Positions 1,372-55,871 of a stretch of 64,000 nucleotides of DNA are shown here, piece by piece. This DNA is from Candidatus Woesearchaeota archaeon. Lineage in GTDB: Archaea; Nanobdellota; Nanobdellia; Woesearchaeales; ARS49. The notes beneath the pieces were generated by a model. That model made no database searches and had not been told where the DNA came from. It saw only the letters and a program-made list of their open reading frames with translations. The stretch lies in the NCBI GenBank assembly GCA_038868995.1, contig JAWCRZ010000003.1:2109-66108 (forward strand), in the 5' to 3' direction. Within the stretch, counting starts at the first letter, position 1. Every line of letters starts with the position of its first letter. Made by a program: the position numbers and the translations under genes.

Positions 1372-1405
1372 GGTTAAGTCAAGTTTCTGGTGCTGGCTGT
1401 CCGCC
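1372..1405. mobile_element. internally deleted remnant of the family-1 hairpin MITE (left terminus only)
   Basis: GGTTAAGTCAAGTTTCTGGTGCTGGCTG is identical to the left terminus of the copies at 17091 and 55747. It is flanked by the direct repeat CTTTTTAG (1364-1371 and 1406-1413). Confidence 0.6.
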
Positions 1406-1416
1406 CTTTTTAGTTA

Positions 1417-14396: not shown

Positions 14397-14530
14397 GCTG
14401 TATTGAAAAGTTTTCAATGGGCCCTGGTCTCACAGCGTGAGACTTCCTTTTTTCCTCGCCTGCGCAGGGGAGAAAAAAGGAACCTTGGCTTTGCCAGGGC
14501 GGGGTCTGCGCTGAACCTTTCAATACAGCC
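14397..14530. mobile_element. family-2 hairpin MITE (134 bp) with 9-bp target-site duplication
   Basis: The termini are GCTGTATTGAAAAG and CTTTCAATACAGCC, forming inverted repeats. It is flanked by GGTAGAAAG at 14388-14396 and 14531-14539. Its core is homologous to family 1. Confidence 0.75.
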
Positions 14531-15773: not shown

Positions 15774-15898
15774 GGTGCTGTCAACTTAATGGTGCCGCGC
15801 TGGCCTGACTTTTCTTCTCCCCTTGCAAGTGCGGGGTGAGAAAAGTCATCTCGGCAACGTCGAGGCAGCGCGGCCAGCACCAGAGAGTTGACTTAACC
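15774..15898. mobile_element. family-1 hairpin MITE (125 bp) with perfect 9-bp target-site duplication
   Basis: It runs GGTGCTGTCAACTTAATGGTGC...CACCAGAGAGTTGACTTAACC and is flanked by TTGCCTGCG at 15765-15773 and 15899-15907. Confidence 0.85.
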
Positions 15899-16915: not shown

Positions 16916-16939
16916 GAGGGGCCCTGGAAAGCCCCAGTA

Positions 16940-17045
16940 TAGCGGGAGGTGGAAGTTCAGCCGGCGCAGTCAAGCACACGGGCATTTGAACCACCGAGCT
17001 ATGGGTTATGAGCCCATCGGGAACTCCAGACTTCCCTACCCCGCT
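16940..17045 (-). tRNA. initiator tRNA-Met (CAU) containing a 31-nt non-canonical intron at position 59/60
   Basis: Acceptor AGCGGGG/TCCCGCT with an A1:U72 pair. The anticodon arm ATGGG-CTCATAA-CCCAT has three G:C pairs. The T arm GGTGG-TTCAAA[intron]T-CCACC is interrupted at plus-strand positions 16954-16984. The mature length would be 75 nt. Confidence 0.8.
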
Positions 17046-17070
17046 GTAATGATAACTGCTCTTTGTGCTG

Positions 17071-17080
17071 TTTTATAAAT
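17071..17080 (-). promoter_or_regulatory. TATA-like box for initiator tRNA-Met
   Basis: The reverse strand reads ATTTATAAAA, centred about 30 nt upstream of the tRNA 5' end (17045) and directly next to the MITE duplication. Confidence 0.45.
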
Positions 17081-17090
17081 GTTTGCTCAG

Positions 17091-17232
17091 GGTTAAGTCA
17101 AGTTTCTGGTGCTGGCTGGCCGCTCTGGTCCTCTGGACTCATTTTTCTCTCCTCCTCGCAGGTGCGGAGGAGAGAAAAATGACCTCAGCGAAGCTGAGGC
17201 TGAGCGGCCAGCACAATTAAGTTGACAGCACC
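17091..17232. mobile_element. family-1 hairpin MITE (142 bp) with perfect 9-bp target-site duplication
   Basis: It runs GGTTAAGTCAAGTTTCTGGTGCTGGC...GCACAATTAAGTTGACAGCACC and is flanked by TTTGCTCAG at 17082-17090 and 17233-17241. The central 17-bp stem is perfect. Confidence 0.9.
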
Positions 17233-17244
17233 TTTGCTCAGTAA

Positions 17245-17255
17245 CCTTTAAATAT
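17245..17255 (+). promoter_or_regulatory. TATA-like box for tRNA-Ser
   Basis: CCTTTAAATAT is centred about 30 nt upstream of the tRNA 5' end at 17280. Confidence 0.45.
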
Positions 17256-17279
17256 GCTCGATAAGGTGCTTTTCTTCAT

Positions 17280-17365
17280 GCCGGCGTGGCACAACCTGGT
17301 ACTGCGCGGGATTGCTAATCCCGTTTCTCGCAAGAGATTTCCCGGTTCAAATCCGGGCGCCGGCG
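17280..17365 (+). tRNA. tRNA-Ser (anticodon GCU)
   Basis: Acceptor GCCGGCG/CGCCGGC, anticodon arm CGGGA-TTGCTAA-TCCCG, a long variable arm (TCTC-GCAA-GAGA), T arm CCCGG-TTCAAAT-CCGGG, discriminator G. Confidence 0.9.
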
Positions 17366-17411
17366 TATTTTTGTCAGAAAGCTTTAATATGTTTGATGCT
17401 CTTGTTGAAAT

Positions 17412-22406: not shown

Positions 22407-22534
22407 GAGTCAAGTTTCTGGTGCTGGCTGCTCTTGTCCTTTGGACTCATTTTTCTCTCGCAGGTGAGGAGGATAGAAAAATGACCTCGGCGAAGCTGAG
22501 GCAGAGCGCCCAGCGCCATTAATTTGACAGCGCC
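22407..22534. mobile_element. family-1 hairpin MITE (128 bp, left tip shortened)
   Basis: It runs GAGTCAAGTTTCTGGTGCTGGCTG...CCATTAATTTGACAGCGCC. The flanks CTCTTTTGA (22398-22406) and CTCTTCTGA (22535-22543) match at 8 of 9 positions. Confidence 0.75.
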
Positions 22535-55746: not shown

Positions 55747-55871
55747 GGTTAAGTCAAGTTTCTGGTGCTGGCTGCTCTTGTCCTTTGGACTCATTTTTCT
55801 CTCGCAGATGCGGAAAAATGACCTCGGCAAAGCCAAGGCTGAGCGGCCAGCACCATTAAGTTGACAGCACC
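55747..55871. mobile_element. family-1 hairpin MITE (125 bp) with perfect 9-bp target-site duplication
   Basis: It runs GGTTAAGTCAAGTTTCTGGTGCTGGCTG...CAGCACCATTAAGTTGACAGCACC and is flanked by TTAATCCAC at 55738-55746 and 55872-55880. Confidence 0.9.

Follow-up and report, generated by a model that had tools for sequence, protein, structure and literature searches.

The perfect hairpin at positions 17139-17182 of the 64,000-nucleotide stretch of DNA analyzed here (the window; contig C3:2109-66108 of a Candidatus Woesearchaeota archaeon) is the central helix, P3, of a 142-bp transposable element of the miniature inverted-repeat type (MITE) that spans 17091-17232. The interior of this element folds into four helices whose pairing is selected across an archaeal order, and the 5′ arm of P3 carries a constrained pyrimidine tract with T5 on each strand. 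The original prediction, made from the window alone, had proposed that the hairpin delivers a two-way termination or insulation signal between transcription units. We find that a built-in two-way stop signal is a plausible and the most likely role of the interior, a reading that we hold tentatively. The conserved stem and T-tract, the pyrimidine arms, the small hairpin before each T-run and the presence of the termination factor aCPSF1 in the host speak for the proposal, whereas the placement of the elements and T-run lengths that do not track the need for termination speak against it.

A promoter-homing MITE with a covarying four-helix interior

Reading 17139-17182 bore out the perfect 17-bp stem, the 10-nt loop and the T5 on both strands that had been described. 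The 5′ arm (TCATTTTTCTCTCCTCC, 17139-17155) is homopyrimidine and the 3′ arm (GGAGGAGAGAAAAATGA, 17166-17182) is homopurine, enclosing the loop TCGCAGGTGC (17156-17165), such that TCATTTTTCTCTCCTCC is read on both strands; because P3 is palindromic, the T5 on the - strand follows automatically. No longer perfect stem exists in the window (loops of 3-12 nt), and ten shuffles yielded 8-11 bp at most. As single-stranded DNA, P3 has a fold energy of -17.4 kcal/mol (z = -6.7), and its palindrome extends to within 2 nt of the dyad (GCA-GG-TGC).

The element that contains P3 belongs to family 1, for which an iterated nhmmer search of the whole host genome (0.94 Mb, 45% G+C, 20 contigs, Woesearchaeota-like) recovered 89 loci of about 125-142 bp, or ~1 per 10 kb, without coding capacity. 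The alanyl-tRNA synthetase of this genome has its nearest matches in Woesearchaeota / Nanoarchaeia MAGs. Family 1 shows the hallmarks of a MITE, namely terminal inverted repeats, a target duplication of fixed length, multiple noncoding copies and empty sites. A 9-bp duplication with at most 2 mismatches flanks 58 of its 72 full-length copies. The termini of the type copy (GGTTAAGTCAAG, “A” end; GTTGACAGCACC, “B” end) form an imperfect inverted repeat (GGTnnnGTCAA) that runs inward into the outer stem, and its left half is recognizably homologous to its right half in inverted orientation.

Each strand of the element is predicted to fold into the outer stem P1 and the helices P2, P3 and P4 with almost no unpaired linkers (Table 1), with whole-element folds of -77.6 and -78.9 kcal/mol for the two strands (z = -7.8 and -9.4). 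In relatives, BLAST matches were limited to the interior (query positions 28-118). A covariance model of this interior (R1) was built from 12 sequences and matched 18 of the 301 sampled genomes of the order, distributed over 17 genera and many families. Standard pairs are formed by 95.2% of cells (67.7% in shuffled and 43-56% in slid controls), compensatory changes occur in 36/36 pairs and the covariation score reaches 0.711 (0.241 in shuffled alignments, of which 0/500 reach the observed value; ≤0.127 in slid ones); as the alignment was fitted to the model, these pairing and covariation figures lean toward structure, albeit with a very large margin. The better strand of 35 distinct sequences alone is 95.5% paired. 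The four-helix structure is selected, and the covariation rules out an accidental palindrome for P3.

The same interior occurs under different ends. Family 2, with 5 loci in the genome and the ends GCTGTATTGAAAAG and CTTTCAATACAGC, has the P2-P3-P4 layout between termini that differ from those of family 1, and its window copy (14397-14529) carries T6 on both strands (14448-14453, with A6 at 14473-14478), as the original prediction had stated on both counts. Its further statement that the part conserved between the families is exactly the hairpin module is borne out and reaches further, as the shared part is the whole P2-P3-P4 unit closed by P1 and not P3 alone. Across the order, the interior is surrounded by at least 3 kinds of outer arms (GGTTAAGTCAA-like, GGCTCTGTAGAAA-like and CTTATTGAAAACC-like). 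One of the 5 family-2 loci is a chimera with a family-1 end; at C14:13760-13900, the family-1 “A” terminus GGTTAAGTCAGGTTTCTGGTGCCGGCTGCC is followed by the interior and the right end (CTTTCAATACAGC) of family 2.

Arm polarity and T-tracts of the central hairpin

In the inner 12 pairs of P3, ~97% of cells have a pyrimidine on the 5′ side and a purine on the 3′ side, with purines on the 5′ side in only about 2-3%, whereas G-C/C-G and A-T/T-A flips are common in P1, in P4 and in the first four pairs of P3. As a consequence, the 5′ arm stays homopyrimidine and the 3′ arm homopurine whichever strand is read. The homopyrimidine 5′ arm is under constraint beyond pairing. At the base of this arm, four consecutive columns are T:A in 27-33 of 35 distinct order-wide modules (77-94%), and the apex is C:G. 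T-run lengths vary from 2 to 8 across the order; in 35 modules from 22 genomes, T≥4 on both strands occurs in 21 and T≥5 on both strands in 16. Some lineages have replaced TTTTT/AAAAA by TTATC/GATAA with the pairing retained.

Within the host genome, 88 cores were compared after alignment-anchored extraction. Only 6/88 have the perfect 17-bp stem, and the median length is 15 bp; T≥4 on both strands is found in 78/88 and T≥5 on both strands in 43/88. The stem base of family 1 (TCATTTTTC / GAAAAATGA) is conserved like the termini, with 2.7-3.7 differences per column compared to a mean of 6.4, and has fewer private (singleton) changes than expected (7 versus 12.8, p = 0.048); insertions and deletions are frequent in the inner CT/GA part of P3. 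Two subfamilies in which most of the inner stem was deleted and T5/A5 retained still increased in number; one comprises seven copies with a 9-bp stem, the other four copies that lack the 5′ inner arm. The 9-bp-stem deletion is common to all seven of its copies, which therefore transposed after the inner stem was lost. That subfamilies with so damaged an inner stem exist in multiple copies speaks against a requirement for P3 in mobility. Overall, both the stem and the T-tract are kept across the genomic copies, the two families and the archaeal order, a sequence-level expectation of the original hypothesis that is borne out.

Terminator-like geometry and putative termination signals of the host

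On the + strand, P2 is followed by TCA-TTTTT, and on the - strand the complement of P4 is followed by the same TCA-TTTTT, with a hairpin-to-T spacer of 2-4 nt throughout the order-wide set. A generic terminator scan scores GGTCCTCTGGACT+CATTTTTCTC on the + strand, GCCTCAGCTTCGCTGAGGT+CATTTTTCTC on the - strand and the family-2 equivalent with T6. The - strand site (17200-17182, tail CATTTTTCTC) is the second-best terminator-like site in 19 kb; P4 has 7 bp in the fold, to which the scan adds the adjacent G-T at 17182/17200 to count 8 pairs. P3 itself cannot be a bacterial-type terminator hairpin, because on each strand the T-run comes before the stem. The archaeal U-tract terminator is characterized by at least four consecutive T, and T5 is present on both strands.

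The host appears to use T-tracts, as judged from its own gene ends. T5+ runs cluster within the 10 nt that follow stop codons (98/971 genes), 17/44 tRNA genes are followed by T4-T7 (tRNA 3′ flanks include ATTTTTG, TTATTTTCTTG and TTATTTTTCTCTT), and aCPSF1 is encoded at contig C2:64807-66690 (TIGR03675, 831.5 bits; cut-off 580.2). The lower share of T5+ on the coding sense strand than on the antisense strand (8% versus 24%) is weak evidence for oligo-T termination, as the same pattern arises from A-rich codon usage. The efficiency of termination in Methanococcus maripaludis is determined by U4 tracts and aCPSF1 acting together (PMC8716108).

These features suggest how a two-way stop could work. 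RNA polymerase transcribing the + strand would produce P2 and then meet TCAUUUUUC; from the other side it would produce the complement of P4 and then meet the same TCAUUUUUC. Such a U-rich, pyrimidine-only stretch is the type of tract at which archaeal RNA polymerase, aided by aCPSF1, ends transcripts. A module that ends transcripts from both sides could make insertion cheaper for the host, because the elements land just upstream of the transcription factor B recognition element (BRE) and TATA box of a gene, often right after the stop codon of the upstream gene, and the trait would be selected on the element lineage and not on each locus. We infer both that transcripts end at the module and that this is the reason for its retention. 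The arm polarity, the constant T columns and the hairpin-then-T geometry fit a two-way stop better than a role in structure only.

Placement of the elements beside promoters

Insertion occurs ~10 nt upstream of the BRE/TATA, which genome-wide lies at a fixed offset from the MITE (the 9-bp duplication, then nAAnnTTTATAAA), with the “B” end GTTGACAGCACC facing the promoter in most copies. The flank past the B end reads as the 9-bp duplication, n, AA, nn and TTTATAAA in 53/66 copies; by the same criterion, a BRE/TATA is present next to the A end in 27/66 copies, and 2.7% of random positions score as well. Copies with a promoter at the B end only outnumber those with one at the A end only by 36 to 10 (p = 1.6e-4), and this bias of the promoter-facing end tracks the termini and not the orientation of the interior.

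Gene context was counted for 84 placed copies. Tandem gaps hold 49 MITE loci (665 gaps in the genome, 234 of them ≥40 nt), divergent gaps hold 32 (38%; 169 gaps, 132 ≥40 nt) and convergent gaps hold at most 3, all doubtful (171 gaps, 48 ≥40 nt), with 414 gaps ≥40 nt in total. The 49/84 copies in tandem contexts are located between the 3′ end of the upstream gene and the next promoter. Many of them abut the upstream stop codon, at a distance of 0-8 nt, and upstream transcripts must therefore enter the element. In many tandem pairs, the stop codon of the upstream gene falls inside or adjacent to the 9-bp duplication, which leaves only ~14 nt to the following TATA, and T-rich TATA boxes such as TTTTTTAAA may double as the terminator of the upstream gene in this compact genome.

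Several observations weigh against a two-way stop. The placement of the elements is explained by promoter-targeted insertion and not by a need for terminators, and the elements avoid convergent gaps, the very places in which a two-way terminator should be of most use. No sign of selection for T-runs at individual loci was seen: T≥5 is equally frequent on the strand that receives read-through (28/48) and on the other strand (28/48), and no more frequent there than in divergent contexts (47/64). In 11/35 order-wide modules (31%; e.g., GAATTATCTCTCC), the T-run is T≤3 on both strands while pairing is kept, and the strong selection on inner-P3 pairing is left unexplained by a T-tract terminator. 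In M. maripaludis, the one archaeon in which this was measured, a single U4-5 tract is only a weak to moderate terminator, with a median efficiency of 43% compared to 30% in the absence of any tract, and strong aCPSF1 binding requires two tracts (PMC8716108); the one T4-T6 tract per strand found here therefore suggests a partial stop at best. The type copy itself is not at the 3′ end of a transcription unit but between divergent tRNA promoters, and it is absent from the same site in 7 congeners in which both promoters are intact. At this copy the signal has no evident transcript to act on, and since the divergent promoters work without the element in congeners, the terminator question is nearly moot at 17139-17182.

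Alternative explanations for the conserved interior

The main rival to a two-way stop, which we consider rather unlikely, holds that the element needs the four-helix fold at the DNA level and regards the T-runs as a side effect of an AT-rich stem base. A folded single strand or an extruded cruciform that joins the ends is one possible form of such a role, and a junction recognized by a transposase or a host junction-binding protein is another. Covariation in all four helices across the order and under different termini would be accounted for, as would a junction nearly without unpaired linkers, a palindrome that stops no more than 2 nt short of the dyad (a better match to duplex or cruciform DNA than to an RNA loop), the inversion of the interior between the P1 arms in 16 copies (as expected of recombining inverted repeats) and the lack of any link between T-runs and transcriptional context in the locus-level tests. 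Structure alone, however, leaves unexplained why P3 arms keep their polarity when P1 and P4 flip, and why four T columns are constant. The spread of two subfamilies (seven and four copies) after most of the inner P3 stem was lost is difficult to reconcile with a fold required for mobility; a GC-rich apex is unfavorable for cruciform extrusion, and no transposase is known for this MITE family. A distinctly improbable further rival places the fold in read-through transcripts, where it would act as a 3′-end stabilizer, a nuclease-processing site or a source of small RNA rather than as a terminator. The predicted RNA structure is indeed very stable on both strands, a tandem-context element must belong to the 3′ untranslated region of the upstream gene at least up to its core, and T-G wobbles exceed C-A mismatches on the better-scoring strand (29 versus 15, a count biased by the choice of strand); bacterial precedents include REP, ERIC and Correia elements (PMC10969869). 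Conversely, 38% of copies are located between divergent promoters, where no read-through transcript is expected, the element is without its own promoter because an internal BRE/TATA is absent, and Rfam yielded no family match, only generic hairpins far below threshold.

Passive origin, which we judge very unlikely, is the least probable of these explanations. A MITE made of fused, inverted insertion sequence ends would be palindromic by construction, its T-runs would derive from the ends of the parent, and no present function would be needed; an example would be a stem that hides the ribosome-binding site of a transposase from outside transcripts. The two homologous inverted halves of the element are as expected from such an origin, as is decay after insertion, with the perfect stem left in so few copies, and the family-1 3′ arm GGAGGAGAGAAAAATGA reads as a Shine-Dalgarno-like motif with an ATG (GGAGG-N8-ATG). 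Neutral decay would not be expected to produce compensatory changes in every pair across 17 genera, and P4 is not a mirror image of P2. The hiding of a ribosome-binding site and start codon by P3 was rejected, as the ATG is not conserved outside family 1 and is replaced by GTC, ATC, ATT or GAA in other lineages. The parent insertion sequence was not found in the host genome searched with the family-1 ends or in the IS1 and ISLre2 profile searches. The search of the host genome for a longer element bearing family-1 ends recovered two solo A-ends only: GGTTAAGTCAAGTTTCTGGTGCTGGCTGTCCGCCC at window positions 1372-1410, just upstream of the alanyl-tRNA synthetase gene alaS and without an interior or second end, and another at C2:39136. 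A GGnnnTG end and an 8-9-bp duplication fit IS1. Descent from IS1, considered for the GGTGCTG end and 9-bp duplication, was rejected, as the IS1 transposase domain DDE_Tnp_IS1 (PF03400) is absent from the host and 21 other MITE-bearing genomes while controls matched. The ISLre2-type transposase profile NF033529 had no match in the 22 MITE-bearing genomes, nor in any control genome.

With the two-way stop retained as the most likely role, a broader claim would be that promoter-homing MITEs across this DPANN order carry a portable, structurally conserved two-way terminator/insulator cassette, in which P2 and P4, each with a U-tract, are clamped by P3 and the element is sealed from transcription on both sides. 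This is possible but doubtful.

Insertion site of the type copy and other copies

A perfect 9-bp duplication borders the type copy. In seven congeneric genomes this site carries no element (TTTTATAAATGTTTGCTCAGTAAsCTTTAAATA) and has one TTTGCTCAG between back-to-back TATA boxes, and the type copy is therefore a recent insertion between two promoters. These promoters belong to divergent genes for the intron-bearing initiator tRNA (16920-17047, - strand) and for tRNA-Ser (17279-17366, + strand). The intron of the initiator tRNA-Met gene is located in the T loop, and the gene was missed by ARAGORN and Rfam. Directly after this gene, a native hairpin GGGGCTTTCCAGGGCCCC is followed by TCTTATTTTC (16918-16935, - strand) with the same layout of hairpin, short spacer and T-run as P4/T5 of the MITE.

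Table 1 Features of the MITEs and of the type-copy insertion site in the window
Feature	Position	Strand	Evidence and remarks
P3, the hairpin originally reported	17139-17182	.	Perfect 17-bp stem, 10-nt loop; 16 modelled pairs, all covarying
T5 tract	17142-17146	+	Sequence; the four equivalent base columns are T in 27-33/35 diverse modules
A5 on +, i.e., T5 tract on -	17175-17179	-	Sequence
P1 outer stem, 5′ strand	17108-17125	+	Pairs with 17202-17212 and 17226-17232; 9 modelled pairs covary across the order
P2, small hairpin GTCC-TCT-GGAC	17128-17138	+	Ends 3 nt before the + strand T5; 4 pairs covary; terminator-like site GGTCCTCTGGACT + CATTTTTCTC
P4, mini-hairpin CCTCAGC-GAA-GCTGAGG	17183-17199	+	7 pairs covary; on the - strand a GC hairpin, then TCATTTTTC
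Family-1 MITE, type copy	17091-17232	+	89 loci, empty sites in congeners, fold energy
Target-site duplication, left copy TTTGCTCAG	17082-17090	.	Single copy in empty sites
Target-site duplication, right copy TTTGCTCAG	17233-17241	.	Sequence
TATA box TTTTATAAA of the initiator tRNA gene	17071-17079	-	2 nt past the left duplication; conserved in empty sites
TATA box TTTAAATA of tRNA-Ser	17247-17254	+	5 nt past the right duplication
Family-2 MITE (from the original prediction)	14397-14529	+	Different termini, same P2-P3-P4 interior; T6 14448-14453, A6 14473-14478
Family-1 subfamily with inverted interior	15774-15898	+	Core T4 on both strands; 16 such copies
Family-1 copy with shortened, imperfect core	22408-22531	+	T5/A5 retained
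Family-1 copy, core stem reduced to 9 bp (TCATTTTTC / GAAAAATGA)	55747-55871	+	Subfamily of seven copies

In the 16-copy subfamily of family 1, the entire P2-P3-P4 interior lies in the opposite orientation to the A and B termini, the arrangement expected from recombination between the inverted P1 arms. At C2:7821-8115, C9:3979-4259 and C4:54787-55028, two MITEs of different families are stacked within 7-16 nt of one another at a single promoter, as if by repeated hits on the same target. Several contigs end inside a MITE copy (C3:2-88, C4:77811-77906, C19:11686-11772 and C6:63463-63593); the repeat family probably causes assembly breaks, and its true copy number may exceed 89. Rfam had no match over the element at gathering score, and at a loose threshold it returned only generic hairpins (miRNA precursor) of ≤30 bits against cut-offs of 37 to 96 bits.

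Significance and comparison with known systems

Termination signals of archaea are still poorly defined outside a few model species. If the interior is a two-way stop, it would show how a promoter-homing selfish element limits its own damage in a 90%-coding genome, and would count as the first described archaeal example of a mobile terminator module. Its dozens of copies, with T2 to T8 and with or without inner stems, would form a compact, naturally replicated set on which archaeal termination signals could be tested. The module would also suggest that U-tract termination in these organisms is helped by small hairpins, and would offer a candidate part for archaeal genetic tools. If it is not a stop, the covariation and strict polarity still mark a conserved nucleic-acid structure in an uncultured lineage, common to MITEs with different ends.

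The promoter-targeting bacterial transposons TnGBS, ISLre2 and ISKra4 insert at a fixed short distance upstream of the core promoter, as the MITE described here does, and Mutator-like elements share its 9-bp duplication. This likeness concerns how the MITE lands and not the role of its hairpin. Other archaeal MITEs are not, to our knowledge, reported to have an interior fold conserved across an order, a terminator-like module or promoter homing. Those of Sulfolobus (SM1-SM4), Halobacterium and Haloquadratum (PMC10969869) resemble the present family in that they are non-autonomous, bear inverted ends and duplicate their target.

Correia elements (CREE) of Neisseria make a TA duplication and, like the MITE here, measure about 100-150 bp, fold end to end and are located beside genes. 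They alter transcription through promoters, an IHF site and RNase III cleavage, and together with SPRITE and ERIC are among the transcription-modulating or terminator-like bacterial MITEs (PMC10969869). Correia elements are bacterial and without a conserved four-way junction interior, and their effects were shown by experiment, whereas those of the MITE here are putative. SPRITE is likewise a small, noncoding, multicopy intergenic repeat with a conserved, terminator-like interior, and in both elements the terminator role is putative. However, SPRITE presents a hairpin and then a U-run to a bacterial RNA polymerase, whereas the archaeal element has its T-run at the 5′ base of a long stem on both strands, small side hairpins upstream of each T-run, a 9-bp duplication and promoter homing.

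Bacterial bidirectional intrinsic terminators (A-run, hairpin, T-run) share with P3 the use of one palindromic module to supply a T-run for both strands. The polarity is reversed, as the P3 T-run is at the 5′ base of the stem and only P2 and P4 precede T-runs, such that P3 lacks the arrangement that defines this class. Archaeal U-tract terminators that act with aCPSF1/FttA (PMC8716108, PMC7515710) are similar to the MITE in having at least 4 T on the non-template strand within pyrimidine-rich surroundings. Efficient native ones usually have at least 2 U4 tracts and need no hairpin (PMC8716108, PMC7515710), whereas the MITE has one tract per strand, placed within a stem on a mobile element, often without an incoming transcript. 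In sequence, the T-tracts of the MITE resemble the native 3′ flanks of the same genome.

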